From positions 10,261 through 74,260 of the IMG/VR virus record IMGVR_UViG_3300005660_000003: DNA of 64,000 nucleotides, one strand, 5' to 3'. Origin of the DNA: a virus (Duplodnaviria > Heunggongvirae > Uroviricota > Caudoviricetes). The position numbers and the translations under genes were made by a program. Shown here piece after piece: positions 3,329 through 61,357 of this stretch; position 1 is the stretch's first letter; each line of letters opens with the position of its first letter. The notes under the pieces are model-generated. The model had not been told where the DNA came from and did no database searches. It saw only the letters and a list, made by a program, of their open reading frames with translations.

Positions 3329-3370
3329 GGTTCACCTCCGGTGGAAAGGAAAAGGGTGAGAAACAACACG

Positions 3371-3415
3371 GAATTTAGAAAAAGAAGCGAATATAGAGAA
3401 GTATAAGTAGAGTTT
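3371..3415 (+). promoter_or_regulatory. promoter-like cassette variant (tttagaaaaag...gagaagtataagtag) 26 nt upstream of HNH gene
   Basis: Shares the core with the motifs at 5431, 7757, 33407, 34213 and 16025 (minus). Confidence 0.45.
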
Positions 3416-3440
3416 AAATTTACATCTTGAAGGGAATAAC

Positions 3441-4250
3441 ATGGAAAAGAAGAATTGTACTAAGTGCGGTGAATTAAAAGAATTGGGATTATTTGATAAA
3501 CAGAAAGCTGGCAAATATGGTCGTACATCTAAGTGTAAGTCTTGTAAAAGTATTATTGCTAAAGAGTATGCAGCTAAGAATCCTGATAAAATCAAGGAGG
3601 CGACTTACAAACAGAGTATTATAAGAAAAGAAAGCGGATATTATAAGAAATATGAAGAAATCAATAAAGAAAAACTTAAAAAGTATAGAACTGAGTACGC
3701 CGAACAGAATAGGGCGTGGATCGTTGAAAAGAAAAGTGAACACTATTTTAAAAATAAAGAAAAACATTTAGAAATTAGTAAAAAGTTTGCACAAGAAAAC
3801 AAGGAAAAAGTTAATGGTTACAAAAAGAAATACAAACTTAATAACAAGGATAAATCAAATTTGCAAGTTAGAGAAAGACGAAAAGTAGATCATAATTTTA
3901 GAATAAAAAGTGCATTAAGATCTAGGGTTTATATAGCCTTAAAAGCACAAAATGCTAAAAAGGTAAAACACACTATGGAATTAATTGGGTGTTCCCCAAA
4001 GTTTCTTTATAAGTATATTGAATCAAAGTTTACACAGGGTATGACTTGGAAAAATCATAAGGTTGACGGATGGCACATAGACCATGTTATTCCCTGCTCA
4101 TCTTTTGATCTAACAGATCCTGCTCAACAACTTAAATGTTTTCACTACACAAATCTCCAACCACTCTGGTCCACGCGTGACATTGCTATGTCTTACGGCG
4201 AAGATCCAGAGTACGTTGGAAACCTTGAAAAGGCTGATAAAATTATTTAG
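3441..4250 (+). CDS. HNH homing endonuclease (N-terminal CxxC...CxxC zinc finger, Lys-rich NK(E/D)KI repeats, C-terminal HNH: GMTWKNH..GWHIDHV.PC...NLQPLW)
   Basis: The conserved C-terminal HNH module is shared with four other copies. It is a plus-strand insertion between minus-strand genes. Confidence 0.8.
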   Translation: MEKKNCTKCGELKELGLFDKQKAGKYGRTSKCKSCKSIIAKEYAAKNPDKIKEATYKQSIIRKESGYYKKYEEINKEKLKKYRTEYAEQNRAWIVEKKSEHYFKNKEKHLEISKKFAQENKEKVNGYKKKYKLNNKDKSNLQVRERRKVDHNFRIKSALRSRVYIALKAQNAKKVKHTMELIGCSPKFLYKYIESKFTQGMTWKNHKVDGWHIDHVIPCSSFDLTDPAQQLKCFHYTNLQPLWSTRDIAMSYGEDPEYVGNLEKADKII

Positions 4251-5412
4251 TGACAATACTAATTATTTCTTTATGTTCAATTAAAGCAGCAAATTGTTTC
4301 CTCATGTTAAGGCTCTTTATGAGATTATAGCTAATGTCACCAGAAAAGCATCCACTCTTAACAATTTCAGCAATTCTGTCAACATCCTTTTTCTTATTGA
4401 AGGTTTTTTCTTCAATTATTTTATCAGAATAGTTGATGAGTCTAGAAGATAAAACACTAGCAATATTCTGCTTGTAACCTGAGGTCTCTACTTTACCTAC
4501 TACGGCACTTATCTTGGCGATAGCAGCCTCATGGTCCTTAGCCTCAAAAATATCTTTTGGGGAAGGGACTCTATCTAACTTGTTATTAATGAATAAGGCA
4601 AAGCAGGCTGAGAATTCGGGGCCGACTGAACCCTCTCCTAAAAGCTGAATTAGGTTAAGGGTCTCTGGTGATCCGAAGTCTTCTAAGCTAGATATACTAT
4701 TAAAGTAGTCTGTGGCAAGTCTTGCGTTAGTTTTACCTTTAATCATTTCGGGATTTAACATGAGGAAGTTAATGCAGCGTGAATCTACTCCATCTCTTTC
4801 GGCCCAAGCCGCCCACTCATCAACCGCGAACTTCATTTCTAGTTTAATAAAGCGTGAGGATTGGGCGGAATCAAGATCACATACAATATACTCCCCATTG
4901 GATGGATTGCTAGTAAGGAATACGTGGCAGTCTGAAGGGAGTTTCCAACTGATGAACTCACCACGATCTATAAGCTCTAAGCAAGCCTGAATGACATGAG
5001 TGGCTCCGCGAGTCCAATCATCGAGCAAAAGAATCACTCCACTACCGTCTTTTGGAACCCAAGCTGGCGGTGAATATGAGGTTCTAGTGTTACCCGTCAA
5101 GGCAACAGTATTTTTATAACTATCTATTTGCTTACCTGATGCCCATGCAACACTGCTCCCTTCACTAGCAACATACTCATATTCTATGAAGGGAAACCCG
5201 CATAGATCACCAGCCTGTTCAATTTGGGCCAAGTTTATCTTAACCAAGCCTAATCCATTTTCCTTAGCTATCTGGCACATTAAGGAAGTTTTACCCAGTC
5301 CAGATTCACCCTCAATAAGAATAGAGTTCTTCTTTTTACCAACCTTTTCAAGGTGACGATTGTTATTAATCACGTGATTAAGCACACTTTTTACTTGAGA
5401 AATCTTAAGCAT
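4243..5412 (-). CDS. cobS: MoxR/CobS-like AAA+ ATPase
   Basis: Walker A GESGLGKTS and Walker B VILLLDDW. It has CbbQ/NorQ/CobS-like architecture and is paired with a VWA protein nearby. Confidence 0.7.
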   Translation of the reverse strand: MLKISQVKSVLNHVINNNRHLEKVGKKKNSILIEGESGLGKTSLMCQIAKENGLGLVKINLAQIEQAGDLCGFPFIEYEYVASEGSSVAWASGKQIDSYKNTVALTGNTRTSYSPPAWVPKDGSGVILLLDDWTRGATHVIQACLELIDRGEFISWKLPSDCHVFLTSNPSNGEYIVCDLDSAQSSRFIKLEMKFAVDEWAAWAERDGVDSRCINFLMLNPEMIKGKTNARLATDYFNSISSLEDFGSPETLNLIQLLGEGSVGPEFSACFALFINNKLDRVPSPKDIFEAKDHEAAIAKISAVVGKVETSGYKQNIASVLSSRLINYSDKIIEEKTFNKKKDVDRIAEIVKSGCFSGDISYNLIKSLNMRKQFAALIEHKEIISIVTK

Positions 5413-5430
5413 CTAAAAACTTTCTACGAA

Positions 5431-5473
5431 AAATAGAAAAAACATCAAATCTAGAGAAGTACTAGATAAGGGA
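5431..5473 (+). promoter_or_regulatory. promoter-like cassette aaatagaaaaaa-N8-tagagaagtactagataag, 28 nt upstream of HNH gene
   Basis: Conserved motif family (see findings). Confidence 0.5.
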
Positions 5474-5500
5474 TATGTAATTTACGCTAATTTAAACTGA

Positions 5501-6319
5501 ATGGGGAAATTTGTGAAAACTTGTAGAATTTGTAATATTATAAAGAGTTTTTCTGAATTTGATAAAAATAAAGACAGTAGGGATAAACTTAGGCACGAAT
5601 GTAAGATATGTCTTAAAAAACGCCGCTCAGAACGTTATTTTAAAAATAAAAAACCAAAAGATATTACAAATAAAAAGATTATTAGTGTTAATAAAAAATG
5701 TTGCAAGTGTAAAGAAACTAAGAACTTGGACATGTTTAGTAAAAATAAGAACAGATTTGATGGTGTAAACGGAATGTGTAAAAAGTGTTATGTTACATAT
5801 AAATCTCAATATCAAGTAGAAAATAAAGAAAAGATTAAGCAGTACAACGATATGTATACCGTTAAAAACAAAGTAGCTAGACAAAAATATAAAAAGAAAT
5901 ATAGTTTAGAAAATAAAGATAAAATAAATCAGACTAATAAAAAATATTATTCTAATAACCCGAGTGTTAAAATAGGTAGAAGTTTAAGTGGTAGAGTTAG
6001 AAGTGCTATAAAAAATTCTGGCGGGACAAAATCCCAATCTTCTTGCGAATTTCTTGGATGTACAAGAGATGAAGTCTGTAAGTATTTAGAATCTAAATTT
6101 ACAACAGGGATGACTTGGGAGAATCACGGATTATATGGTTGGCATATAGACCACATAAAGCCGTGCGATTCTTTTGATTTAACAAATCCTGAGCAGCAAA
6201 GAGTTTGCTTTCATTATACCAATCTCCAACCACTTTGGGCGACTCGTGACATAGCAATGAGTTACGGTGAAGGCCCGGATTATGTAGGTAATTTGGAAAA
6301 ACATAACAAGCTATTGTAA
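5501..6319 (+). CDS. HNH homing endonuclease (two CxxC zinc-finger modules plus Lys-rich repeats plus HNH)
   Basis: C-terminal 80 aa are about 80 percent identical to the copy at 7832..8524. Confidence 0.8.
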   Translation: MGKFVKTCRICNIIKSFSEFDKNKDSRDKLRHECKICLKKRRSERYFKNKKPKDITNKKIISVNKKCCKCKETKNLDMFSKNKNRFDGVNGMCKKCYVTYKSQYQVENKEKIKQYNDMYTVKNKVARQKYKKKYSLENKDKINQTNKKYYSNNPSVKIGRSLSGRVRSAIKNSGGTKSQSSCEFLGCTRDEVCKYLESKFTTGMTWENHGLYGWHIDHIKPCDSFDLTNPEQQRVCFHYTNLQPLWATRDIAMSYGEGPDYVGNLEKHNKLL

Positions 6320-10041: not shown

Positions 10042-10596
10042 TTATGTATTTTTTTCCACTAATTTTTGAATATCCCCACAAGTGGAAATATTCTTCATAA
10101 TATATTTAAATCCTTTATACACTGAATCCTGATTTAAAATCTTCAACAATAAAAACTGCTCATATTTTGTAGCTAGCAGAAATACAAGTCCTGCCAATAT
10201 GGTGCGTTCTCTATTATGCACAGTAAATATATTATCTTCAAAATTCATTTTACCTAATAGGTCTTCTGCTAATTTTTTAGTAGCCTCATCTTTTGATATA
10301 AACATGTCCACAAGTGTTTTAGGATTTATTTCGTTAGAAAACGTAGTAAATTTTCTTTCATATGTACTTTTTATGCAGAAAAGATTTCCAACTGTAATTT
10401 TGGGATCATACTTTAGGGCGGTTGATATTAATGCGTTAGTAAAAGTTCTATCTACATAATATGTAAAACGCACATCAGGCTGATGATAATCAACTATCTT
10501 TATCTTTTCATTATATTTTTCTTCCATTAGATCTTCAATGTAAGTTTTTTCACCAGCACCCAAATTTATAAACGAACAAGCAAAGGCTTTACCCAA
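10042..10596 (-). CDS. hypothetical protein
   Basis: 184-aa ORF. Confidence 0.45.
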   Translation of the reverse strand: MGKAFACSFINLGAGEKTYIEDLMEEKYNEKIKIVDYHQPDVRFTYYVDRTFTNALISTALKYDPKITVGNLFCIKSTYERKFTTFSNEINPKTLVDMFISKDEATKKLAEDLLGKMNFEDNIFTVHNRERTILAGLVFLLATKYEQFLLLKILNQDSVYKGFKYIMKNISTCGDIQKLVEKNT

Positions 10597-24512: not shown

Positions 24513-27500
24513 CTAAATTGAACAGGCCCCACCAGAACACCCTGACTCAACAGTCATATCGTCGGTGCCGTCTGGGGTTACTAAGTAATACAGGTTTTTA
24601 ATACCCAATTTGTGTGAGTATATCATTTGTTTAATTATTTCAGATAGTGGAATTTTACCATTAGGATAATTATTATAATCCATAAAAAGATTTAGAGATA
24701 TACTCATACATATCCATCTTTGCATTGATGCATAGATTTTAATATGATGGAGCTGATCTACCATTTCAAATGCTGTTGTGTAATAATTCTTATTTTTAGG
24801 CCAAGACGGAGGAATAACCTTAATTGCCCCAGAGCCAGATTTTTTAGTAGTCAAAAAACTACGTATTGCATCTACCCCATTTGTAGAATTTTGCACAACC
24901 GAAGACGATTCTACCGGCATTTCTGCAAGTAATGTAGAATTCATAAGACCGAACTCTAATATTCTTCCACGTAATTTTTCCCAATCCATTTTAGGTTTAT
25001 CTAAAAACTTTAACTCTTTAGCTGTGTCAATTGGTAAAATTCCATCTGCCCATTTAGTTTTTTCAAACCAAGGCATTCTTTCACCCAACTCTTCTGCTAT
25101 TTTACAAGAGGCACTTATCATATAATAGGAAACTTTTTCAAAAATATCAGAGGTTTCCTGCAGTACTTCTTGAGATGTAAGCTTTATCTTTTTGCTAGCC
25201 ATATAGGCCGCATAATTAGTGATTCCTATCCCTAGCGACCTATAGTTCTTACAAAAGTTTTCTGCTGCCGGGAATCTATACTCTTGAGAATCTATGACTT
25301 CGTGCAATATTCTAGATATAATATAGCACACACTTTCATACTCTTCTTCTTTTGTTGTAAGAACATTAACAGCAGATAGCACGCACACACCAATTAATCC
25401 ATCAGGGTCCTGTAGGTGTTGTACTGGTTTAAGTGGGTGAACGACCTCTTGGCAATTTCCAGTTAAAATCCCATTAAATACAGCTTTATGTTCTAACGGC
25501 TCATTTAAACAATACGTATCATCTTTTCTACCGTCGTCCGTTATATTGGCTACCGTAATAAATTGAGATGCCTCTCTCTGTGGTAATCTTTGATTAAATT
25601 TTAATCTATTTGTTTTAAACCCCATCAATGAAAGCTTATATAAATCATTTGAATTTATTAATAGTCTTTTTGTTTCCTTGCATGAGAATAATTTATACCC
25701 GCCACGACCATCTGGTAAAAGTCTGTCTCCAGTTTCTACTCCATTTACAATTTTACTATTTATACCAAGGGTTTGAAGCATTAATTGTAATTCATAAATA
25801 AATTCTTGCTCTATAGAAGAAACCTGTATTGACTCATTTGTTCCATTTCTAGCTATAGTTCCATCTCCATCTAAATAACCAGCTAACCAAGCGAGTTTTA
25901 TTTTAACCGAAGAGTTAGTTGGTATTTTAAATTTCATAGGCATATCTTCATGCATTACAACATTTCTTCTACCAGAGGTGTCTTCTCCTCTATCTTTTTT
26001 AATATCTAGAAACTTAACAAGATTTTTCTTTTCTCCATATAGAGATATTCTTCTTGCCGATCCAGTCTCATGTGTTCCGTCAGCACAAAATAGTCCGTGG
26101 GTATATGGATATTTAAAATCTTCTGATCCATCTACAATAGGTAGATCAAATTTACATAGCTTGTCACCCACCTTAAGATCTTTAGTTTCTTTAATGGTTA
26201 ACTTACCCTTAACTTGATCTGCATATGACTCAACAATATACCACTTGTGGTATGGTGTGCATTCTAAATATTTACCATCTGAAAGTATAACTTTAACAAG
26301 TTTTTTATTAACCCCAGTTTTTACAACTTGCGTTTTTGACCATTGTTTACCATTCCAAACAGATACAATTTCATTTTCTAGTTCACGTATTGGAATGTGA
26401 CCATCTTTCGTTAGTAACAATGTCTCTGGAGCAACACACAAATTACTAGTAGTAACTCTTTCTTTAAAAGTACTGTGCTCATTCACATTATCTATGTGCA
26501 TAATATATATACGGCCAGTTTCAAGTCTTTCTTTTGCTATTTGGTTTAATAACTCAGATGCCTTTATTCTCTTTGAGAACTTTCCCCCTTTTTCTTCTGC
26601 TCTTGTGTAGATCTCATCAAATTCGGGTAGTCCAAAACTATTATAAACCTCGGGAAATTCATGATAACTCATTAAGGTAACGTCCTCACCCTTCATAAAT
26701 CTATTATAAAGAATTCCACTAATCTGTATACAATAATCCATCCATCTTACCTTATTTTCATCCGCCCCCTTATTATTCTTATAAGTGAGAATATCCTCTA
26801 TCTCTGGATGAAAGAATGGGAAATTTATTGTAGCAGAACCTTTTCTAATTCCTCCTTGTGAGGTTGAATTAACAGAACTTTCAAGTAGCTTTGCAAACGG
26901 GCGAATACCTGTATGTTTAACTTCCCCGTTTCTAATAGGGGCATTTCTAGCCCGGATAGATCCCATGTCTAAGCCAATTCCAGACCTATCTGCTACATAC
27001 TGCCCGACTATATGACTAGACGAAAAGATGGAGTTTAATGTATCATCAATTTTAATTAATATACAGCTTGAGTAATTCTTTAGTTTAGTTCTTACGCCAG
27101 CTAAAATGGGGGTAGGGAGATTTATTTTAAACAAAGAAAGATAATCATAAGTTTTCTTTATTAAGTCTAATCTATTCTCGTAACTCTTAAATAAAACCAT
27201 TGGAATTAATATAAAAGCGAATTGGGGAGTTTCATATATTTTCCCCGTTGATCTATCCTTAATTAGATACTTATCACACATTTGCTGAATACCAGCGTGG
27301 GTAAACATAAAGTCTCTATCATGTTTAACCATTTTATTTATTTTGTGTATTTCAGACTCTGAGTATTCCTTTAGTATGTCCTCATTGTAAATAGTCTTAT
27401 TTTTTCTAAGATGGTCATACAACCTAGGTGGGTCACTTTCTCCCCAGACTTGTTTTCTTAGGGCGTATGTCCGCAGCCTCCCGGCAACATATTGATAATT

Positions 27501-27719
27501 AGGATTATCTAATGTTATTAGGTCATACGCCGATCTTACTAATATCTCTTGTATATCAGAGGTTTTCATCTTATTTGATATTGAAATCTTAGCGTTCATG
27601 GCTACATCACTAGCTGATACGTCACTTAAATCGCTACATGCCCACTCAAGGACTTTGTTAATTTTTTCAGCATTAAATTCTTCTAATTTACCATTTCTCT
27701 TTTTTATTTGTAAAGTCAC
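24513..27719 (-). CDS. nrdA: ribonucleotide reductase class Ia alpha subunit containing an intein
   Basis: N-terminal ATP-cone, then SNL-C...N-CQEV. The extein is about 740 aa. The 328-aa insert has Hint blocks and LAGLIDADG motifs. Confidence 0.9.
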   Translation of the reverse strand: MTLQIKKRNGKLEEFNAEKINKVLEWACSDLSDVSASDVAMNAKISISNKMKTSDIQEILVRSAYDLITLDNPNYQYVAGRLRTYALRKQVWGESDPPRLYDHLRKNKTIYNEDILKEYSESEIHKINKMVKHDRDFMFTHAGIQQMCDKYLIKDRSTGKIYETPQFAFILIPMVLFKSYENRLDLIKKTYDYLSLFKINLPTPILAGVRTKLKNYSSCILIKIDDTLNSIFSSSHIVGQYVADRSGIGLDMGSIRARNAPIRNGEVKHTGIRPFAKLLESSVNSTSQGGIRKGSATINFPFFHPEIEDILTYKNNKGADENKVRWMDYCIQISGILYNRFMKGEDVTLMSYHEFPEVYNSFGLPEFDEIYTRAEEKGGKFSKRIKASELLNQIAKERLETGRIYIMHIDNVNEHSTFKERVTTSNLCVAPETLLLTKDGHIPIRELENEIVSVWNGKQWSKTQVVKTGVNKKLVKVILSDGKYLECTPYHKWYIVESYADQVKGKLTIKETKDLKVGDKLCKFDLPIVDGSEDFKYPYTHGLFCADGTHETGSARRISLYGEKKNLVKFLDIKKDRGEDTSGRRNVVMHEDMPMKFKIPTNSSVKIKLAWLAGYLDGDGTIARNGTNESIQVSSIEQEFIYELQLMLQTLGINSKIVNGVETGDRLLPDGRGGYKLFSCKETKRLLINSNDLYKLSLMGFKTNRLKFNQRLPQREASQFITVANITDDGRKDDTYCLNEPLEHKAVFNGILTGNCQEVVHPLKPVQHLQDPDGLIGVCVLSAVNVLTTKEEEYESVCYIISRILHEVIDSQEYRFPAAENFCKNYRSLGIGITNYAAYMASKKIKLTSQEVLQETSDIFEKVSYYMISASCKIAEELGERMPWFEKTKWADGILPIDTAKELKFLDKPKMDWEKLRGRILEFGLMNSTLLAEMPVESSSVVQNSTNGVDAIRSFLTTKKSGSGAIKVIPPSWPKNKNYYTTAFEMVDQLHHIKIYASMQRWICMSISLNLFMDYNNYPNGKIPLSEIIKQMIYSHKLGIKNLYYLVTPDGTDDMTVESGCSGGACSI
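25455..26438 (-). mobile_element. intein (residues 428-755 of NrdA) with LAGLIDADG homing-endonuclease domain, inserted at the thiyl-radical Cys (SNL|C)
   Basis: Starts CVAPETLLLTKDG (block A). TPYH (block B). HGLFCADGT and LAGYLDGDGT motifs. Ends ...TGN followed by +1 Cys. Confidence 0.8.
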
Positions 27720-52081: not shown

Positions 52082-52333
52082 CTATCCTGTAGTATCTTCA
52101 TAGCTTTCTTGGTTTTCAAAGTCTGCACTCCCTACGTAGTGGGCACCAACAATTTCCGTTAAAGCTTCTATGCTGTAATTTATACTGGCGTTTGCACAAA
52201 GTAACACCTCCATATCTTTATTAAAATCTCTAAACACAGCGATATCTAGCCTAGACTTATTAAGGCTATCTTGTATTTGTTGGATTTCTTTGTTTGAATA
52301 ATCGGCAGTGTCTACAATGATTGAACGCCTCAT
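52082..52333 (-). CDS. hypothetical protein
   Basis: 83-aa ORF with a 4-nt overlap. Confidence 0.35.
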   Translation of the reverse strand: MRRSIIVDTADYSNKEIQQIQDSLNKSRLDIAVFRDFNKDMEVLLCANASINYSIEALTEIVGAHYVGSADFENQESYEDTTG

Positions 52334-53040
52334 GAAAATAGCTCCTTGTGCTTTTCGTCTATATATGCCATTGCTGAAAAATTAAAACTACCGTGGAACA
52401 TAAAAGATTTATAAGTACTTAGATCCCCATATTCATGAGGATCTTCTTTAATTGGACGCTCCACACTAAATCTACGGGCTAATTCAATACTAGGAAATTT
52501 AATACCCTTATTATTTTCTAAAAACTTTCTTGCTGTGACAGAAATAAACCAGTCTTCATTACTTATTATAAATCCACTCTGAGGTATTAAATCAGCCATT
52601 TGGGATGAGGCTTCTAGTAGCTTTTTTGATCGCAGACAAGCACCACCGTTAAAACCCGTGTGTTCATTATCCCAACAGGCCCCAATGTAATCATACAACA
52701 AGAACTCCTCAATCCAAAGATCTGGATTTATTATACAAGAATCCCATTGTTGAACTAGGCAAAAATCCGTATCAATAAAGTTAACAAGGTGTTTTAAAAT
52801 CCAATAAGAATAGGTCCCGTCGGCTTTGTATTCTGCCCATTTAATTACGGGATGGGTAAACTCTTGCGGACATATGATGAGGGCTTTTTCAAAAGAAAAG
52901 GACGCGAGCGACACCTCCATAGCCTTTATGGTTTGCTCTAAAAAATCTTGCGTATGGATTATTGATACTAGTGTTATTAATTTAGAAGGCATTCTACTCC
53001 TCCTCCTCGTCGTTGTCCTCTTCCTCTTCTTCGGTCTCAA
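52330..53040 (-). CDS. hypothetical protein
   Basis: 236-aa ORF. Confidence 0.45.
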   Translation of the reverse strand: MRPKKRKRTTTRRRSRMPSKLITLVSIIHTQDFLEQTIKAMEVSLASFSFEKALIICPQEFTHPVIKWAEYKADGTYSYWILKHLVNFIDTDFCLVQQWDSCIINPDLWIEEFLLYDYIGACWDNEHTGFNGGACLRSKKLLEASSQMADLIPQSGFIISNEDWFISVTARKFLENNKGIKFPSIELARRFSVERPIKEDPHEYGDLSTYKSFMFHGSFNFSAMAYIDEKHKELFS

Positions 53041-53347
53041 AATTATCTAGATCGCATACAAAATTGAGATTTGTCATACGAACAAACTCCTGCAATAAAT
53101 CATACATCTTATTGTGCTTATCGCTAGTGTAAAAATTAAGGCGTCCATTATAATTTGTTAAGGATTGCTGACTTAGACCTCTTTCACCATTAATAAGTTC
53201 TTGGAAAATAAAAGGTGAGTTACTTATATCATTTATTATTTCAATAGCTATTTGAAATGCTTCTAGTAGTGACTCCTTAGTATTCATGGTCACTAATTCG
53301 GCAAATCTTTTTGATAAATCTACAGTTTCTTTGTTTGCTATGATCAA
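52994..53347 (-). CDS. hypothetical protein with poly-Glu/Asp C-terminal tail
   Basis: 117 aa ending EEEEEDNDEEEE. Confidence 0.4.
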   Translation of the reverse strand: MIIANKETVDLSKRFAELVTMNTKESLLEAFQIAIEIINDISNSPFIFQELINGERGLSQQSLTNYNGRLNFYTSDKHNKMYDLLQEFVRMTNLNFVCDLDNFETEEEEEDNDEEEE

Positions 53348-54366
53348 GAGAGTAATTCCTTAAAAATGCGTGCTGTATTTTCCCAAGAGAACATCTTTGA
53401 AATTTGTATTCCTGTAATATTAACCTTATAGCCATTCTTATAGGAGGCTCTAAGGGCTTCAACAAGGTGATTTATGTCGAAGACGCCCCAATTTCCTTGT
53501 CCGAAAAACCACTTGTCATCAAATGCAGGTGTAAGACTAGTAACAGGAATAAGCGTCGAGTTATGTCCATTACAAAATTCTGTGTGCCCAGCATAGTCAG
53601 TAACAATTACTTCCTTGCCACACGCCATCATTTCTAAGGTTTCTAATCCCCACCCCTCAGCTTTAGAAGGGAAAACGCCGCAACTAACAGTGTTCATTAT
53701 TCGGGCTAAATCTTGCTGGGTTTTAAATGGGCCAACAAACTTTATCTTTTTAGCCTTACCCATTGGGGTATTCATGTATTTGTATCTAATACGGCCCATG
53801 AATTCTGTATCATGGAAAATGTTATTCATAGACATCCATAGCTCAACATTGTCCGTAGGTTTAAACGCAAGATTAAAAGCTTCTACTATTTCATCCTGAG
53901 ATTTTCTTATTTCCCACTTACCAGCAGAAAAGAAGATGTGTACATTTGGTGTGTGTTCTACCTCGTGAAATATATCGCGATCAACACCAAGTGGAACCAC
54001 TTTAACAGGAGTAGTAATACCGTTGTTTTTTACAACCCCTTTTGCCCACTCAGTACACACCCATATCTCATCAACACTAGATAGGTGGGCTTTTTCAATA
54101 TTGTTAAACGTATCTAATTCAAAAATGGTATAACCTATACGTTTATTTTTGCCCACCATCATAAGGTCAAACTGATGGAATAATCTAACTGTTGGTAAAG
54201 ATAGATCGTAAGGTTTGCTTCCTATGAATTTGTTAGTAATAGATTGCGGCAATCCGAAGGATGGTTGCCCTATTGGTATAATATTACAATCTAAATGTTT
54301 TGCAATATTTAGGGCAACCAATCCATATGAAGTTATATTACTTATAGGAGCGTTAAAATTAAACAA
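53344..54366 (-). CDS. glycosyltransferase family 1 (GT-B)
   Basis: EGWGLETLEMMACGKEVIVTD matches the GT1/GT4 E-x7-E motif. Confidence 0.7.
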   Translation of the reverse strand: MFNFNAPISNITSYGLVALNIAKHLDCNIIPIGQPSFGLPQSITNKFIGSKPYDLSLPTVRLFHQFDLMMVGKNKRIGYTIFELDTFNNIEKAHLSSVDEIWVCTEWAKGVVKNNGITTPVKVVPLGVDRDIFHEVEHTPNVHIFFSAGKWEIRKSQDEIVEAFNLAFKPTDNVELWMSMNNIFHDTEFMGRIRYKYMNTPMGKAKKIKFVGPFKTQQDLARIMNTVSCGVFPSKAEGWGLETLEMMACGKEVIVTDYAGHTEFCNGHNSTLIPVTSLTPAFDDKWFFGQGNWGVFDINHLVEALRASYKNGYKVNITGIQISKMFSWENTARIFKELLS

Positions 54367-54754
54367 GGTCTAAACTTGCTAGACGACTTTGCAGGTCGTT
54401 AATTTTTCTTGCTCTAGCTGGCAACATAGCATTAATAACCTCTCTTATTTTTATTGCCTCTGGAGATTTACCGCCTTCTTGTGACCAAATTTCTTTTGTT
54501 CTAGCATCGGTTGTGCTAAATTTTTGTTTGGTAAGGTGATTCCTTAATGGATGAAGTACGTCGTTTCTAAATTTTTGTGACGCAACAAGATCCTTCTTTT
54601 CATCTTCATCGGTGTATCCTAAATACTTCCTGCAGTCTAATAGAGTACCCGCTGAACTCTTTGCCACTTCTCTTACAAACTTAATCTTTCGAAGATCTGC
54701 GTCTGTAACAGATACACAAACAGTTTCAAAAATTTCTTTCAATTTGTCATTCAT
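54359..54754 (-). CDS. hypothetical protein
   Basis: 131-aa ORF. Confidence 0.4.
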   Translation of the reverse strand: MNDKLKEIFETVCVSVTDADLRKIKFVREVAKSSAGTLLDCRKYLGYTDEDEKKDLVASQKFRNDVLHPLRNHLTKQKFSTTDARTKEIWSQEGGKSPEAIKIREVINAMLPARARKINDLQSRLASLDLV

Positions 54755-55355
54755 CTTTTAATTTTCCTTTATAAACAAAAGAGTTTTTATTGTATGACCA
54801 GACACAATTTTCTGGATCATATAAATAATCTGCTTCAAGATAATACCCATTTTTATCTACTATTGGGCAACAACAACCGTTTTCTAATTTGTAGTTTGGG
54901 GTCATTTTTTTACACAACACACAAGGCTTAAGATCAGTTTCTTCATCTTCTGGGTGCCAATATCCACTATCACTATACTCAGATATTACACTATGCAGTA
55001 TTTGGGGAAAGATGGGAAGTGTTTTACTGTTGTGTAATGTACTGTATAAACCCCCTGTGCAAAATTTATTGTAGCACTCACCACTAAATCTAACTGAACA
55101 ACCAATATCAACATTGGGGTGGTGATAATTAAAGTAAAGACGTAACTCGTGTGAAGGTTCTACTAACATTCTTGGTTTTTCAAAACTGAAAAAACGATCA
55201 CAACTTGACTCACCATCTTCATCTTCATCTTTTGTGGCTACACAGGTTATTGGTTTAAATTCATATAGAGTGTAATTATTATTACTCTGCTTAATCTTCC
55301 TAGGTTTTTTTAACAATACATCCAACATAAAATTCCCCAAAAGGTATATTAACAC
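54747..55355 (-). CDS. Cys-rich hypothetical protein immediately downstream of the E1-like gene
   Basis: 202 aa with multiple Cys clusters (CVLCKK...GCCCP). Confidence 0.4.
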   Translation of the reverse strand: MLIYLLGNFMLDVLLKKPRKIKQSNNNYTLYEFKPITCVATKDEDEDGESSCDRFFSFEKPRMLVEPSHELRLYFNYHHPNVDIGCSVRFSGECYNKFCTGGLYSTLHNSKTLPIFPQILHSVISEYSDSGYWHPEDEETDLKPCVLCKKMTPNYKLENGCCCPIVDKNGYYLEADYLYDPENCVWSYNKNSFVYKGKLKDE

Positions 55356-55441: not shown

Positions 55442-56164
55442 TTACTTCTGTTCGTTGTTATTGTTACAGTTACCAAAGTACTCATCTGGGTTCTCCGGAG
55501 ATAAAACAGAATTAATAGAACAAAAACTCAACATCCTGTGAACGGGCCAACCTTTTCCACCCATCAAATTGGCGAATTGATTAACGCTGGTCCCAGCTGC
55601 AATGTTGGCTATATAGTTACTCATTGGTTGAACGCACCCAAAACTTGCTGATTCACTTGATGGGAAAATGGTTTTGAGATACCAATCATTAGTAGTCTCC
55701 ATGTCTTTTACAGTAAGAATTTGAGCAACAGAAGCCCCGATTCTAACATCAAAGAAATATTTGCACTTATCCCTGTAGTAGTTATACAGGAGTTTCCTTA
55801 TATCAATGTTGTCTACGGTACTCCATACTGCGTCATAGGTGGTGTTTTTCCCCACTATTCTAGGGGCCCATTTATTAGGGTAAGCACTTACTTTAATGGC
55901 TTCGCCCATTTGGGAAACAATTTCTTCAGCTAGAACTTCTACCTTTGTCTTGCCACAATCACCCTGTGACCAATTCTGAGGAATTATATTGTGCGCTTCT
56001 ACAATGTCATTATCAACTAAATCAATAGACTTGACTCCAAGTCTAGCTACACAACTCGCTACGTTTCTACCTATAGCCCCACATCCGACAATTAAGACCC
56101 GTACTTCTTCTAGGTTTTTAGCAGGGCAGAAGTACTCTTGGCGAGAATAGAAAGCCGCGCTCAT
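55442..56164 (-). CDS. E1-like (ThiF/MoeB/UBA superfamily) adenylating enzyme
   Basis: Rossmann motif VLIVGCGAIGRNVASCVARLGVKSIDLVDNDIVE. 4-nt overlap with the JAB gene. Confidence 0.7.
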   Translation of the reverse strand: MSAAFYSRQEYFCPAKNLEEVRVLIVGCGAIGRNVASCVARLGVKSIDLVDNDIVEAHNIIPQNWSQGDCGKTKVEVLAEEIVSQMGEAIKVSAYPNKWAPRIVGKNTTYDAVWSTVDNIDIRKLLYNYYRDKCKYFFDVRIGASVAQILTVKDMETTNDWYLKTIFPSSESASFGCVQPMSNYIANIAAGTSVNQFANLMGGKGWPVHRMLSFCSINSVLSPENPDEYFGNCNNNNEQK

Positions 56165-57285
56165 TTGAAATCTCCTGTATTAATTTTACTTGCTGTATCT
56201 TTAAATTGTGGATACTTTAATCCCGCTGTATTAATGGCTTTTACTCTGTCAAGTTTATTATTACTTTTATAGGCTATCTGGAAATCTTTTTCTAACAAAT
56301 CCCCGTGTATAGCTCCGAGAATAACAGATATTCCATCCATTGGATTATAAGGGTTGTCAAACTCAAATATTCTTTCCATGCTCTGCAAGGATGTAATATC
56401 CTCTATGTCTGCGAATGCAGCTTTCATTCTTTGTAGCTCGTTGTCAGTCATCACCCTAAATGATTCTCGGTGCTCTCCTAACTCGAGTAGCATTTCTGGG
56501 ATTATTTCCGGGGACGCACTTTTTTTAAAACTATTTTTAGCGGGTTGGTAATGACTATGGTTTCCACCATATCCTTGATACCCGCTTCTTATTACTGTGT
56601 AAGTATCTGGGCTAACTAATTTGTCATATTCAGTAATCAGTTCGTTAAATTCTGGGAAAATTTCAATTAGTGAAACATGTGGGAGGAGTGACTTCTTAGC
56701 TTTTTCCATACCCAATTTATCTACAGCCCTTTCCCCAAAAATATTTTTTAAACCTGTTAAAATTTTAGCATCGTATCCTTCATCTTTAATAATTTCAACA
56801 GGTATCTCTTTTTCTACTTCATACGGATGATCTAGCCCGTTTACTGATGTGCTAAGATTACCTCTAACTCTCAGTTTACAGGTAATTTGTCCTGTCTTTG
56901 ACAGGATCATCATTACCATAAAATTTTTCATAGCGTTATCTTGGTCGTTCCAAGTGCTCATATCTTTACCAGAGGGATTAGCTGAACTATCTCCAGTCAT
57001 TGGGTGAGTATGACACCAAACTCTTTCACAGTTAATAGGTGGTATTCCCGCCATAGCGTTAGTTTCTATATATTCCGCCATATACTCGGGGCAACAATCG
57101 GAACTAGTTGAATTTACTTTTTGTTTTACGATCCTGAAATCATAAACATGAAGTGGGTTTTCTTTGTGGGTGATTCCAAACATTGTAATTTCTGAGTCTT
57201 TGTGGTCTCTCATAAATACAAACTTATCAAATGCATACGCATCAATTTTAAGTGTAAGTTCTTTTTTGGGTGTAGTTGTGTTCAT
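56161..57285 (-). CDS. JAB/JAMM (MPN+) metallopeptidase with C-terminal extension (deconjugating/processing enzyme)
   Basis: E...HTHPMTGDSSANPSGKD fits E-x(n)-H-x-H-x(10)-S-x2-D. Confidence 0.65.
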   Translation of the reverse strand: MNTTTPKKELTLKIDAYAFDKFVFMRDHKDSEITMFGITHKENPLHVYDFRIVKQKVNSTSSDCCPEYMAEYIETNAMAGIPPINCERVWCHTHPMTGDSSANPSGKDMSTWNDQDNAMKNFMVMMILSKTGQITCKLRVRGNLSTSVNGLDHPYEVEKEIPVEIIKDEGYDAKILTGLKNIFGERAVDKLGMEKAKKSLLPHVSLIEIFPEFNELITEYDKLVSPDTYTVIRSGYQGYGGNHSHYQPAKNSFKKSASPEIIPEMLLELGEHRESFRVMTDNELQRMKAAFADIEDITSLQSMERIFEFDNPYNPMDGISVILGAIHGDLLEKDFQIAYKSNNKLDRVKAINTAGLKYPQFKDTASKINTGDFK

Positions 57286-58196
57286 ACTTTAATCTCTTCC
57301 TTTTCTTGACAAACTTCACAGATTGCCTTGTTGTTTATGGTAAAGTAATACGGGGTGGTTTTTTCACAAACTGAACACTTTTTAATGCAATTTAGGGAAT
57401 AAAATTTCCCATCAATTTCTTCAGAACAATCCTTGTGTATAATTGCTTTTGTTTTTTCACAACTAATTTGTTCTCCGTCAAATTGGTAGCAAACAGAGCA
57501 CTTTTGTCCTACCCAATTATCTATGTACGCCCCGCTCCAATTAAGTGAGTTAGCATTATACCTACATAGTAATCCACAGACATTGTACAAAATTGACATT
57601 ATATCAAATTTTTGGGTATCTGCTCCCGATAGACGCGGATTTAGATATCCTCCTAGGCACAGCCCTCCATTTGGTCCTATGTGTGGGTGAAAACAACTTT
57701 TACCCCCAATGTTTCGCGGGTTATTTTCTCCACTTGGAGTACTTACTGCAGATAGACCTACTGAACGTGGAGAACTACTAACGTAATCGTCGAAATATAA
57801 TCTTGTTTTAAATAGTCCTAGGTCTACTGTTAGGTTAGTATTTGTTTGGTGGTTTTTTTCTGATATTACGGCTCTAGATTCAAACATAATTGTTGATACA
57901 TACTCATCCATTTCTAGCATTGTAAAATCGTGCTTTTTAACTAATCCATCATAAAGGCTATCGAAGCCTTCTCTACTTACAGCCTTTAAGGGTTCGCGAT
58001 AGTATGTATCGCCATAGTTGGCCAATGTATTTACCGCAGAAGAAAGTTCTCGGATTGTTCTACTTCTAGCTTTTTCTAGTGTTTTGTAGCTTGTGTCTAT
58101 TACTGGAAGATGTTCATTCTCCCATTTTTTTCTTCTCGAACACCCAATAGTGTATTGTCCATAGAATTTTTCTTTAGTTAACATCACACGCTCCAC
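57282..58196 (-). CDS. E2-like (UBC-fold) conjugating enzyme with C-terminal Cys-rich zinc-ribbon domain
   Basis: CFHPHIGPNGGLCLGGYL matches the UBC active-site motif FHPNI...G.ICLDIL, with a candidate catalytic Cys. Confidence 0.65.
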   Translation of the reverse strand: MERVMLTKEKFYGQYTIGCSRRKKWENEHLPVIDTSYKTLEKARSRTIRELSSAVNTLANYGDTYYREPLKAVSREGFDSLYDGLVKKHDFTMLEMDEYVSTIMFESRAVISEKNHQTNTNLTVDLGLFKTRLYFDDYVSSSPRSVGLSAVSTPSGENNPRNIGGKSCFHPHIGPNGGLCLGGYLNPRLSGADTQKFDIMSILYNVCGLLCRYNANSLNWSGAYIDNWVGQKCSVCYQFDGEQISCEKTKAIIHKDCSEEIDGKFYSLNCIKKCSVCEKTTPYYFTINNKAICEVCQEKEEIKV

Positions 58197-59061
58197 ATAT
58201 TACTACATCAGATTTAATAATCCAATCCACTTTATCTTTTTTGCACACATAGCATTCTTTAACCATTGCTGGATTGTAAATAGTCCCATTTATTACCTTA
58301 CCACAGTTTGCGTGTAGGATCATGCCGGTTTTAGGGCAGGTAATCATGTTCTTCTTGGAGTATTCCTCGCATACGCAACATTTTCTACCAATAAAATTTT
58401 CCATTGAACTAGCAATGTATGACGAATTAAACACCGATAACTGTTTTATAATGTTATCAATTATATCATAAAAGAACTTGTTTGTATCAAATGCTTTTGT
58501 AAAAATGGCATAATGTATGAACTCTCCGTATATATCAAAATATGGATGTTTTATTTTTCCATCAGTTTTTAATTTAATTATTCTTGGATGTAAAATATTT
58601 TCTTTACTAGTAAAAGTAACATGAATTGGGAAATTTTCAAATTGTAGGGTCCAAAACTCACCTGTCTTTATATTTTTATTATGTAAATTTAAATCAACAC
58701 TAAAATATAAACTTTGGTTACCGGAATGTTTTATAAATTTTATGCTTGGGTACTTTTCTTCTAGTTCTTTTATTTGAGAATCTAGTGTGGCAGGGTTGAA
58801 TTCTTCAAAAGAATTTAAGTAATCCAAATCTATGTCTGAATATTTCGACATATTATCTCGTATCTCTGGATACTTTCTTTTTTCAATATATTCGTCAATT
58901 TTGTTTTTTTCTTTATGTAATCTGATTATCTTTGAAAGTAGGAGGTCGTATACATGTTGTAAGGCATGGTTTTCTTTAAGCGTATTTATTTGCTCAAGAA
59001 AAGCCTCTGTGTATACACTCTTATCTAGTGCGGGTTTTTTTGTTGGCATTGCTGTTACCAA
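58174..59061 (-). CDS. E2-like paralog lacking the catalytic Cys (UEV-like?), same C-terminal Cys-rich zinc-ribbon domain
   Basis: Same two-domain architecture as 57282..58196. The HP-containing loop ILHPRIIKLKTDGKIKHP has no Cys. Confidence 0.45.
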   Translation of the reverse strand: MVTAMPTKKPALDKSVYTEAFLEQINTLKENHALQHVYDLLLSKIIRLHKEKNKIDEYIEKRKYPEIRDNMSKYSDIDLDYLNSFEEFNPATLDSQIKELEEKYPSIKFIKHSGNQSLYFSVDLNLHNKNIKTGEFWTLQFENFPIHVTFTSKENILHPRIIKLKTDGKIKHPYFDIYGEFIHYAIFTKAFDTNKFFYDIIDNIIKQLSVFNSSYIASSMENFIGRKCCVCEEYSKKNMITCPKTGMILHANCGKVINGTIYNPAMVKECYVCKKDKVDWIIKSDVVICGACDVN

Positions 59062-59221: not shown

Positions 59222-59437
59222 TTAGCCTGCATCGACCTTGCCCAAGCTCACAGTCAAAATATCGCCGTCACCAAGAGGCGTTTCTGTGTTTGCCTGCATT
59301 CCGTTCACGCGATATACAGATCCGCTTGGAGCCCCAACTCGTGAGCCAGCAGCCCCCGCAGTAGAGCCGTGAGACAGGGTTACTGATACCTGATTGCCGT
59401 CTGAAAAAGCCTTGATAACGTTTACTGTAATGTTCAA
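59222..59437 (-). CDS. ubiquitin-like beta-grasp protein (ThiS/MoaD-like), C-terminus ...GKVDAG
   Basis: 71 aa. PLGDGDILTVSLGKVDAG resembles the ThiS/MoaD C-terminal ...DGD.I....V.GG. First gene of the E2-E2-JAB-E1 chain. Confidence 0.6.
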   Translation of the reverse strand: MNITVNVIKAFSDGNQVSVTLSHGSTAGAAGSRVGAPSGSVYRVNGMQANTETPLGDGDILTVSLGKVDAG

Positions 59438-59528
59438 GTGATTACTCCAACTAAAAAACCAAAAAGATGTGGGTGGCCAACATTAACCACCCACTGAAAA
59501 CTAATCTCGGACTTTCGTCCTTCAAATA

Positions 59529-59942
59529 CTACTCAGCTTTTGGAGCTGGCACTGACCAAATCAGGTCGTCGTTTGTTGGAACAAGCAATCCCGCACACTG
59601 TGCGAACTGAATAGCAGACTGCTTAGCTCCAACCGCAGCAGCCAAGCAGAATATGTTCTGCGTTGACTGAGCGTGCGCAGCGGCCACATTGATTCTGTCA
59701 ATTTCTTTATGCACACTTGCCAACTCATCCTCAAGGTTCTTCTTGGCCCGAGCCAACGCTGTGGAACGGTTTTGAGCTGATGTAAGAACACCAACAGTAA
59801 ACCCTTCCAATTTTTCAAGAGCAGCAGCCTGCTTCTTTGCCAAAGCCTTACCAATTACGTCTGAACCAAACGTAGATGGGGCAATAACATCCGCAACAGT
59901 CAAAGTTGACAACGGATTCACAACACTCGTACTTTCACTCAT
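59529..59942 (-). CDS. Ala-rich hypothetical protein (start assigned to the internal Met with RBS; ORF-track start at 60011 is less likely)
   Basis: agggaag lies 8 nt upstream of the ATG at 59942. Coiled-coil-like Ala/Lys/Glu-rich sequence. GC-rich. Confidence 0.4.
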   Translation of the reverse strand: MSESTSVVNPLSTLTVADVIAPSTFGSDVIGKALAKKQAAALEKLEGFTVGVLTSAQNRSTALARAKKNLEDELASVHKEIDRINVAAAHAQSTQNIFCLAAAVGAKQSAIQFAQCAGLLVPTNDDLIWSVPAPKAE

Positions 59943-60010
59943 AAAACTTCCCTTTGCAAAGGAAACTATAAAATGGGAGCAACTACATATTACCCCCGGT
60001 AAACTACACA

Positions 60011-60583
60011 CTAATCACCAAAGCCATCATTAAGTAAAAATGGCCTTTGTGGACTCGAATCAGAAATTGTCCAACTAATTTCTGGACTTCTTAATTGATT
60101 TTTGTTTTTAACTACACCTATAATCTTCCTGTCGAAATTAGGTAAAAGCATTTCTATCTTATTGTTATTATTTATCGACAATTCAAAATCTTGGAAAGCG
60201 AAACTTTTTGAGTCTTTATCATACGGTATGTTTTTCGTATAATATAGAAATGAAAAGTTTGTTTTGTCTTCGGTTTCTTTTAACCCTGTAATCACGCAGG
60301 AGAATATATGGTCGCACGCCAATGAAATCGCATATGGAAAACCATCTATCGTACGTTGGAATTTAGTGTGCCCAGTAAATCTTACTGAAGATCCATCGTA
60401 AATATTAATTACCTCGGCGTATCCTTCTGGGGTAATTTGTACGTATACCCTTCTACCATCTGGATTTTTCTTATTCGTAAAGAAATGTAGATCATTGCTA
60501 TATGTTTTTCCAACATATGTATGGTCAAACATTCTTCCCCATTTATGAAGTAGTGGGTGACTTTTATACTGTAATTGCGTCAT
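60011..60583 (-). CDS. hypothetical protein
   Basis: 190-aa ORF. Confidence 0.45.
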   Translation of the reverse strand: MTQLQYKSHPLLHKWGRMFDHTYVGKTYSNDLHFFTNKKNPDGRRVYVQITPEGYAEVINIYDGSSVRFTGHTKFQRTIDGFPYAISLACDHIFSCVITGLKETEDKTNFSFLYYTKNIPYDKDSKSFAFQDFELSINNNNKIEMLLPNFDRKIIGVVKNKNQLRSPEISWTISDSSPQRPFLLNDGFGD

Positions 60584-60606: not shown

Positions 60607-61029
60607 TTATGTTTGAAGAGACAATCTCTTCTTTATTTCACTAAAAGTAGAAGAGTTGCAGGATGCTCCGTTAAGAAAGATGGAGGTCAACTCTCCCTCT
60701 TTTTCCTGCTCCGGTGAACAATCATTAAGTAACACAAGGACTCCATTGTCTCTTTTGATTACTGAAAGTAATCCTTTTGCGGACTTCTTCATGCCATCGC
60801 CAGTTTTTGGATCTTTAAAGATGCTCTTGGCTACGCCAGAGATTTGGACCCAAGTAGCCTTGCAGGCAATAGAATATGTATCACGGGTAACATATTGGTA
60901 TGTGTAAGACCCAATACCAAACACTACATTAGTGGAAGCAAAACCCTTGTCGGCTAGTAATTTGCAAATTTGTTCACACCTATAGATGATTGGTGTGAAT
61001 AAATAAGCATTCAGGGATACCAGAAGCAT
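60607..61029 (-). pseudogene. nadV: C-terminal remnant (about 140 aa) of nicotinamide phosphoribosyltransferase NadV/NAMPT
   Basis: GIGS...QYVTRDTYSIACKATWVQISGVAKSIFKDPKTGDGMKKSAKGLLSV...TFSEIKKRL aligns by eye to the NAMPT C-terminus (GSGGG...LTRDLLNCSFK......VFKDP...KRSKKGRLSL...SFDEIRKN). The N-terminal ~350 aa are absent. Confidence 0.5.
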
Positions 61030-61357
61030 CCATTTCTACATCATCTAATATTAAGATCTTACCACTAACTGGGTTGCTTGCGATCCAGCTCTTGATCTCA
61101 TCTATTCTCCAACTACCCTCTATATCTGTACAGGGCAATATTGGCGTATGATCAAAGATAGTAAGCCCCGCCCACAATAACTCACTTCTTACGCGGGTTA
61201 TTGAGGCTGGGTGTCTACGCTAATCAGAAGAAAGAACTATCTTAGAACTGGTGCTCTCTACGAGAAATTTCAACAGTAGCAACTTGTCATTCTCAAAAGG
61301 TGTTTCGCTTATTGAGCGATTAAGAACACCATCCACGTCTAAGAAAATAATGTTCAC
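60980..61357 (-). pseudogene. small HAD-superfamily phosphatase with an in-frame TAG at codon 46 (probable TGG to TAG in the conserved SSDWR motif); GTG start overlapping upstream stop (GTGA)
   Basis: Hand translation: VNIIFLDVDGVLN...KIVLSSD*RRH...KILILDD.... HAD motifs I (DxDGxL) and IV (DD) are present. The ORF track shows only the post-stop part (60980..61177). Confidence 0.5.

Follow-up and report, generated by a model that had tools for sequence, protein, structure and literature searches.

Ala-Gly tail and high GC content as family traits of an undescribed ubiquitin-like module in phages

The conjugation of ubiquitin-like proteins (Ubls) in prokaryotes has so far been described as a cellular activity, either mostly anti-phage, as in the Bil, Bub and CBASS Cap2 systems, or archaeal, as in sampylation. 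In type I Bil systems the Ubl, BilA, mostly ends at Gly even though BilC is kept (10.1101/2023.09.04.556158). In type II systems the Gly is followed by 1–9 residues that are removed by BilC (10.1101/2023.09.04.556158; 10.1101/2023.09.26.559546), and in E. aridi BilC cuts BilA between Gly97 and Ala98 (10.1101/2023.09.26.559546). In Bub, the JAB enzyme frees the Ubl from the BubAB fusion by cutting right after a conserved Gly, and the E1 has no catalytic-cysteine domain (10.1101/2024.11.21.623953). On the viral side, only E1-like genes are found in the Asgard virus Nidhogg, and literature searches retrieved no account of a Ubl/E1/E2/JAB cascade encoded by a phage. Here, a Ubl gene located at positions 59222 to 59437 (minus strand) of a 64,000-nucleotide stretch of phage DNA was analyzed together with its neighbors. 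This stretch, hereafter the window, comprises positions 10,261 to 74,260 of the IMG/VR record IMGVR_UViG_3300005660_000003 (Caudoviricetes).

The comparison with related loci suggests that this Ubl is probably the conjugated tag of a phage-encoded conjugation cascade, accompanied by an Ala-rich partner protein, and that both of these genes are highly expressed. More tentatively, the module may represent a complete ubiquitin-like conjugation cascade, the first to be encoded by a prokaryotic virus, tagging its coiled-coil partner or host proteins, with a UEV-like/E2 pair and extra E2-like proteins whose zinc fingers would unite E2 and E3 in one chain. If true, phages would use the same chemistry that bacteria direct against them, and a clade of uncultivated large phages would carry its own compact cascade. 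Its six to seven genes would make a small set for studying the E1-to-E2 handover without a Cys domain, and could also reveal the role of a Cys-less E2 paralogue outside eukaryotes and the benefit that protein tagging brings to a phage. It is the module that is of interest here. A preliminary description of this DNA had drawn attention to the Ala-Gly end of the Ubl, to the lack of a C-terminal extension and to the high GC content of the gene; each of these points can be explained and is unsurprising, and the sequences of the relatives indicate that the unusual tail and the GC richness come from neither errors nor foreign DNA but are shared throughout the family, within a phage Ubl module that had not been described. 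The genes of the module are the following:

59529 to 59942, minus strand: Ala-rich protein, 137 aa, helical or coiled-coil, upstream of the Ubl gene in transcription (alignment of relatives)
59437 to 59222, minus strand: Ubl gene, 71 aa, TTG start, ending in K-V-D-A-G and then TAA (open reading frame and translation)
58174 to 59061, minus strand: Cys-less E2 paralogue, 295 aa, UEV-like, with HPY, no active-site Cys and a C-terminal zinc ribbon
57282 to 58196, minus strand: putative active E2-like enzyme, 304 aa, with H170-P171-H172...C180-x-G and C-terminal zinc fingers
56161 to 57285, minus strand: JAB/JAMM metalloprotease, 374 aa, with E32, H92-x-H94, S105, D108 and a C-terminal extension of about 200 aa
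55442 to 56164, minus strand: minimal E1 of ThiF fold, 240 aa (Pfam ThiF, 3.8e-26)
54747 to 55355, minus strand: short E2-like protein, 202 aa, with HPN...FY..xC-x-G followed by CxxC...C

The ubiquitin-like protein and its tail

The TTG start of the Ubl gene lies seven bases past a GGAG, and its product is the 71-aa protein MNITVNVIKAFSDGNQVSVTLSHGSTAGAAGSRVGAPSGSVYRVNGMQANTETPLGDGDILTVSLGKVDAG, in which the reactive Gly71 is encoded as the last residue and is already exposed. As had been described, the reading frame stops right after ...GKVDAG, where the TAA follows, so that the Ubl is encoded in its mature form, ready for activation without processing. A sequencing error that altered the stop had been considered as a possible objection. 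It was ruled out, since an identical protein is encoded in three further independent metagenome assemblies (ENA and Logan; L002-L004) and the orthologues in the alignment of relatives share the start and stop positions; the stop is therefore genuine. A variant that is 97% identical and ends in ...VDVG was found in the JGI contig L001.

The AlphaFold2 model of the protein, built from a HMMER-derived family alignment, was a β-grasp with a predicted local distance difference test (pLDDT) score of 90.2. The best fold matches of this model in the PDB, obtained with Foldseek, were MoaD (top match, 6jbz_B), Caldiarchaeum ubiquitin, SUMO and NEDD8, and by sequence the family profile came closest to the archaeal SAMP2 among the PDB entries (E=0.01). 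An exhaustive HMMER search with the Ubl against 1.84 billion representatives yielded 18 matches, 13 of them proteins of 70–78 aa and one a tandem ThiS-like di-Ubl ending in KGG (E 3e-4). No Pfam, PHROG, PADLOC or NCBIfam model matched the Ubl. The gathering score of Pfam ThiS (PF02597) was not reached: the window Ubl gave no ThiS match, three of 15 family members gave sub-threshold ones (best E 0.0082), and sub-threshold TGS matches also occurred in a few members. The product of 59222..59437 is thus predicted to be a β-grasp ubiquitin-like protein, as originally proposed, and to represent a previously unnamed family. Set beside ThiS, MoaD and BilA, it has the fold of MoaD but falls short of the ThiS threshold and of a Gly-Gly tail.

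The tail was compared in 23 distinct close relatives, the window Ubl included, and all of them follow the pattern K-x-[D/E/A]-[A/V]-G, with K-[V/Y/F]-D-A-G as the conserved form of the tail. The terminal Gly and the Lys at -4 are invariant, and the penultimate residue is Ala in 22 proteins and Val in one. Nothing follows the Gly in nine of the 23, the window Ubl among them, and exactly one residue does in the other 14, this cap being Cys (n=11), Arg (n=2) or Phe (n=1). Distant relatives, reached through a JAB profile search of metagenomes, end in ...K-I-x-G followed by A, AA, AVTA or ARLVA (1–5 residues). Moreover, in the contigs L033 (1945-2691) and L035 (1671-2321) a single open reading frame (ORF) consists of a Ubl domain (...NLKG/A..., the slash marking the end of the conserved Gly) joined in frame to a complete Ala-rich protein, and these fusions precede the E2, JAB and E1 genes. 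The Ala-Gly tail and the missing extension therefore look like ordinary states of a family in which only the Gly is constant, and not like the anomaly that they had been taken for. The same applies to the supposed paradox of a mature Ubl encoded beside a JAB gene, because caps, short extensions and fusions all occur in the relatives. The JAB likely trims caps and fusion partners in those relatives, and it probably acts as a deconjugase in this phage.

These tails have counterparts in described systems. The mix of capped and uncapped tails in the phage family mirrors the two types of BilA, and the fusion precursors of L033 and L035 resemble that of Bub. In eukaryotes, single-Gly tails are present in UFM1 (Val-Gly), Atg8 (Phe-Gly) and Atg12, and in UFM1 and Atg8 only the last Gly of the tail is conserved, as in the phage family. 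In UBA52 and RPS27A, the Ubl is made at the N-terminus of a partner unrelated to it, from which it is cleaved after the Gly, an arrangement similar to that of L033 and L035. The eukaryotic proteins have, however, no sequence relationship to the phage ones, and the phage partner is a coiled-coil protein. The SAMP/UbaA/JAMM1 system and the ThiS and MoaD proteins share with the phage module a small β-grasp protein and a minimal ThiF-type E1, and a JAMM protease. By contrast, SAMP, ThiS and MoaD end in Gly-Gly, use no E2 and double as sulfur carriers, whereas the phage tail is Ala-Gly and E2-like genes are always present.

Additionally, five GC-rich metagenome contigs (L021, L023, L024, L025, and L029) carry distant Ubl-JAB-E1 loci with a 350–410-aa gene between Ubl and JAB, which matched the E2 profile only in L024. 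The Ubl tails of this set are G/A, G/AA, G/AVTA and G/ARLVA, and one protein ends in IANA without the Gly. An association of the cap with single-E2 systems and of the uncapped tail with two-E2 systems, seen in 9/9 loci, was broken by L019, in which both E2 paralogues are present, yet the Ubl has a Cys cap.

The enzymes, the Ala-rich partner and the distribution of the locus

In the putative active E2, H170-P171-H172 and C180 are invariant in an alignment of 10 sequences, as are nine zinc ligands (C233, C236, C246, H254, C257, C274, C277, C293, and C296). The comparison of this family with human UBE2D2 gave an hhalign match of 95% (E 4e-8, 91 columns) in which C180 falls on the catalytic Cys85 of UBE2D2. 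The profile of the family gave 38 matches in the PDB, nearly all of them to E2 enzymes (best E 0.0025). The true start of the protein is probably the ATG at 58184, with an identical 300-aa product, P0027.

The Cys-less paralogue is clearly related to the active-E2 family (hhalign 99.7%, E 1.4e-26) and is present in seven of ten syntenic contigs. It keeps the His-Pro but not the Cys, and the first zinc site is missing as well in some relatives. A weak match to Pfam zf-RING_16 was obtained for this paralogue. The zinc region may nevertheless not be of RING type: the spacing of its ligands, together with a first site that has decayed independently in the Cys-less paralogue, fits two sequential zinc modules better than a cross-braced RING. 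The short E2-like protein, in which P80, C99, G101, and C145 are invariant in the alignments, is tentatively placed as the third member of the E2 set; it gave no direct match to UBE2D2. One or two copies of this Cys-rich gene of about 200 aa occur in every relative. Every relative also has at least one E2-like protein with the HPH...Cys active site, and several have up to four E2-family genes.

A JAB enzyme had been noted in the operon of the Ubl, and indeed the JAB, the ThiF-type E1 and the E2-like genes are encoded just downstream on the same strand. The JAB residues E32, H92, H94, S105, and D108 are invariant in the family alignment, and the protein matched CSN5 (E 0.008, with the motif aligned) and the PADLOC JAB model (0.016). 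In the alignment, the E1 has no second adenylation domain, CYS domain, rhodanese domain or CxxC zinc sites; its adenylation motifs are invariant in the family and C177 is the only invariant internal Cys. The best match of the E1 profile in the PDB was the active adenylation domain of UBA6/UBA1 (1e-15), followed by MccB, BubCD (1.6e-9), ThiF and MoeB. No NCBIfam model reached its cut-off with the E1, the best ones being ThiF models.

The Ala-rich ORF, which the preliminary description had placed downstream of the Ubl gene, in fact lies upstream of it in the direction of transcription. It immediately precedes the Ubl gene in every relative in which that flank is available, and its products in the relatives are 127–142 aa long. 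The protein belongs to no Pfam, PHROG or NCBIfam family, and its profile matches in the PDB were of coiled-coil type only, similar to bZIP proteins. Since the two proteins are fused in L033 and L035, a Rosetta-stone link, the Ubl and the Ala-rich protein may function jointly, by forming a complex or as a tag and its principal substrate. Lys107 is invariant in the Ala-rich family, fusions included; that it might be the acceptor site of the Ubl is speculation. The gene at 60011-60583 (minus strand), which encodes a conserved protein of about 163–248 aa of no known family, always precedes the Ala-rich gene and may belong to the module.

The same gene order was found in ten syntenic contigs: a protein of about 185 aa, the Ala-rich protein, the Ubl, one or two proteins of about 300 aa, the JAB (331–401 aa), the E1 (225–244 aa, with a single adenylation domain throughout), a small ORF and one or two Cys-rich proteins of about 200 aa. 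The sequence identity among the relatives is 38–61%. The window and all of the relatives are phage-like contigs. In the window, small co-directional genes are accompanied by two tRNAs and by genes for a ribonucleotide reductase, a DNA ligase, AAA ATPases, homing endonucleases, ThyX and PNKP.

Megablast and tblastn with the region, the Ubl, the JAB and the E2 gave no match in INPHARED (50,697 deposited phage genomes), the JAB gave none in IMG/VR either as a single protein or as a profile, and JAB-specific patterns retrieved nothing from 185,579 GTDB species genomes. No PHROG, Pfam or NCBIfam family was matched by the Ubl, the E2s, the JAB or the Ala-rich partner. The ThiF-like genes of crAss-like, Flavobacterium and Xanthomonas phages were rejected as counterparts, being 25–31% identical and located in other contexts.

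In the crAss-like phage cr106_1 (NC_055871.1), the 92-aa gp074 (698-976) resembles the Ubl model in structure, as a β-grasp, and its tail reads ...KKIKSG/KF. In the same replication region, gp070 (3237-4454) has a JAMM-like HSHNNMSTFFSGTD motif and gp069 (4458-5669) an E1 domain (5.9e-25), and no E2 was seen there in a quick inspection. These genes may form an unannotated Ubl-JAB-E1 set in the replication module of Crassvirales, and such sets with no recognisable E2 may be commoner in phages than annotation suggests.

When the module was compared with Bil, a similar set of components was observed: a Ubl with a reactive C-terminal Gly, a putative E2 with a catalytic Cys, a JAB/JAMM protease, an E1 and no separate E3. 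Unlike Bil, the phage module lies outside a bacterial defence island, and its 240-aa E1 has neither the inactive adenylation domain (IAD) nor the mobile CYS domain of BilD. There are two to four E2 paralogues, a Cys-less one included, with extensions at the N-terminus and zinc fingers at the C-terminus; compared with BilB, the phage E2 has about 300 aa, zinc fingers and paralogues, and its UBC-like core and Cys180 are recognized by profile comparison. The JAB has 374 aa, and the Ubl, which consists of one β-grasp of 71 aa, comes with a coiled-coil partner. The module matched none of the Bil-type models of PADLOC or NCBIfam. The minimal E1 with no Cys domain is shared with Bub. By contrast, Bub has Ubl-E2 and JAB-E1 fusions, Ser oxyester catalysis and a DUF6527 serine protease, whereas in the phage module the Cys of the E2 is invariant, JAB and E1 are encoded by separate genes, and the fusion partner of the Ubl is a coiled-coil protein; DUF6527 was not among the family matches listed for the window. 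The module is best read as a variant of the known Ubl systems, apparently set apart from Bil (by the BilD architecture and the defence locus), from Bub and from sampylation.

GC content, codon usage and terminators

The Ubl gene and the Ala-rich ORF had been described as an island of roughly 55% GC in an about one-third-GC genome. The values obtained were lower: the Ubl gene had a GC content of 51.4% and the Ala-rich ORF one of 48.1%, the pair together (59222..59942) had 48.0%, and none of the regions measured reached 55%, the best 216-nt stretch having 53.7%. The pair is still the GC peak of the window, whose overall GC is 35.4%: no other stretch of 216, 414 or 721 nt has a higher value, and of 60 genes these two have the highest GC, the Ubl and Ala-rich genes holding the top two ranks.

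GC content and codon usage were then recomputed against the rest of the window. The expected GC was obtained by re-coding the proteins with the window's own codon usage, excluding start and stop codons. The GC of the Ubl gene was 52.4%, versus 45.6% expected from its amino-acid sequence, and that of the Ala-rich gene was 48.3% versus 43.8%. The GC content at third codon positions (GC3) was 0.47 versus 0.29 expected for the Ubl and 0.42 versus 0.28 for the Ala-rich gene (z about 3.4–3.6). Gly, Ala, Pro and Arg together represent 31% of the Ubl and 28% of the Ala-rich protein, versus 18% overall. Amino-acid composition explains about 60% of the excess GC and the remainder is synonymous, which bears out the earlier suggestion that the high GC is partly compositional. 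The synonymous part consists of a shift from A to G at the third position, with AAG, CAG, and TTG favoured. Third-position A is depleted in 8/8 syntenic loci, and G is enriched about two-fold in 7/8, the enrichment being least in L006. This third-position bias was confined to the Ubl and Ala-rich genes in L005-L014 and in the window. In every relative the two genes have 43–51% GC on locus backgrounds of 31–39%. Because the excess recurs in all of the relatives on such backgrounds, it appears to be old and not an insertion, that is, a long-standing trait of both genes; the reading as an island did not hold.

Three terminator-like hairpins, the top three matches of the terminator scan, were located around these two genes:

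59199 to 59171, minus strand: terminator-like hairpin with T-run, 13 bp stem, right after the Ubl stop (top match of the terminator scan)
59494 to 59469, minus strand: terminator-like hairpin with T-run, between the Ala-rich and Ubl genes (terminator scan and folding)
59997 to 59975, minus strand: terminator-like hairpin where the p190 gene ends, upstream of the Ala-rich gene (terminator scan)

The hairpin after the Ubl gene folds with -25.6 kcal/mol (z -3.7), and seven relatives have a hairpin with a T-run of different sequence in its place. A hairpin is also found at the position of 59469..59494 in L005, L008, L009, L011, and L014, and analogues of the one at 59975..59997 occur in relatives. 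The positions of the terminators are thus conserved across the relatives and their sequences are unrelated. The pattern of GC, codons and terminators fits high expression and not gene transfer. From it we infer abundant expression of the Ubl and Ala-rich genes as units, with the enzyme genes being reached by read-through.

Proposed mechanism, alternatives and neighboring genes

By homology, the minimal ThiF-type E1 would adenylate Gly71 of the Ubl, which would then move as a thioester to Cys180 of the zinc-finger E2, with the Cys-less UEV-like paralogue and the short E2-like protein possibly assisting the transfer. The Ubl would next be linked to lysines of target proteins, the Ala-rich protein being its stoichiometric partner or its main substrate, and the JAB would strip single-residue caps or a fused partner from the Ubls of the relatives and here would probably reverse the conjugation. 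In this scheme the Ubl and Ala-rich genes would be GC-rich because their products are rich in Gly, Ala, Val, and Ser and because G-ending codons are preferred over A-ending ones. Each gene would be bracketed by its own terminators, and both, abundantly expressed, would be placed ahead of enzyme genes expressed at a low level.

Several points weigh against this proposal. The targets, the passage through a thioester and conjugation itself are predictions from homology. The AlphaFold2 model of the active E2, made from a 4-sequence alignment, had a pLDDT of 36, and the E2 call comes from profile comparisons; the match of the short E2-like protein to the active-E2 family was weak (hhalign 76%, E 2e-5). 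The handover of the Ubl to the E2 is hypothetical, because a CYS domain is missing from the E1 and the stretch surrounding C177 fails to align to solved E1s. When the Ubl sequences are anchored on their GD motif, the tail of the family is one residue longer than that of GG-type Ubls, and DAG aligns to the EGA of the distant relatives, so there is a small chance that Ala70, once the tail is trimmed, would be the activated residue. High expression, finally, is deduced from codon bias and terminators, and a sigma-70 scan found no promoter, with fewer sites than in shuffled controls.

It is unlikely that the Ubl is instead a sulfur carrier, thiocarboxylated by the ThiF-like E1 and donating sulfur for the modification of cofactors, tRNA or DNA, with a JAB that merely edits adducts as with CysO/Mec+ or TtuB/TtuD. 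Such a role would agree with the minimal, ThiF/MoeB-like E1 and its sub-cut-off NCBIfam ThiF matches, with SAMP2, a ThiS-type protein, as the best PDB sequence match of the Ubl, with the three relatives that gave sub-threshold ThiS matches, and with a PP-loop ATPase (PF01171) encoded about 7 kb away in L009. It leaves unexplained why each relative keeps an HPH...Cys E2-like protein, and several up to four E2-family genes, which would be useless in a sulfur relay. The E1 has no rhodanese domain. Of the 28 families matched by 42 other long ORFs of the window, the 25 that were listed included no acceptor enzyme, and ThiG, MoaE, CysM, PP-loop, TtuA and rhodanese were all absent from them. The tail is not Gly-Gly, and the partner of the Ubl, whether fused or separate, is a coiled-coil protein and not a synthase. 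A conjugated tag is therefore preferred to a sulfur carrier on account of the E2-type active site, the multiple E2-like genes, the non-GG tail, the lack of a listed sulfur-acceptor enzyme and the coupling to a coiled-coil protein.

Similarly improbable is a module that builds no conjugates of its own and disrupts the Ubl immunity of the host (Bil, Bub or type II CBASS), either through a mimic Ubl that soaks up host enzymes or through a JAB that strips host conjugates. Host Bil systems do attack phage tails via Ubl conjugation (10.1101/2023.09.04.556158), and the neighborhood of the relatives is rich in genes frequently linked to counter-defence or repair (NAMPT, RNA ligase, PNKP and a Ro-like DUF2828 protein). 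A decoy or editor, however, would need neither its own E1 nor two to four E2-like genes with catalytic residues nor a conserved partner, and beyond generic E1 and JAB similarity no component matched Bil, Bub or CBASS models. A recently acquired, GC-rich foreign island, with the truncated Ubl tail as a by-product of the transfer, is very improbable. The pair is indeed the highest-GC segment of the window and its GC3 is well above that of its neighbors, but both genes are GC-rich at the same place in 10/10 syntenic contigs despite their AT-richer backgrounds, the relatives show the same third-position shift, and composition by itself raises the expected GC of the Ubl gene well above the window value. 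The 38–61% identity also indicates long vertical descent together with the enzymes. Recent horizontal transfer was thus rejected as the cause of the GC peak on the basis of the relatives' GC, the composition and the codon shift, and the reading as the conjugated tag of a phage cascade was retained.

Some features of the neighboring genes were also noted. Following the Ubl module in the relatives with two long E2 genes, as in the window, there are a conserved 131–137-aa protein with an LGY..DEKKD motif (54359-54754, minus strand), a GT1 glycosyltransferase (53344-54366, minus strand) and a DUF5672 protein (52330-53040, minus strand). In the single-E2 loci L011 and L013 an RNA ligase replaces these three genes, and L006 retains the DUF5672 gene. 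On the other side, only a 140-aa C-terminal fragment of NAPRTase/NAMPT is encoded in the window (60607-61029, minus strand), whereas L009, L010, and L011 have a NAMPT of 529–531 aa, and the ORFs 60980-61177 and 61220-61357 beside the fragment resemble gene remnants. The large subunit of the ribonucleotide reductase (24513-27719, minus strand) has 1068 aa, with matches to the enzyme at residues 2-435 and 674-1065, and the insertion of about 240 aa is probably an intein.

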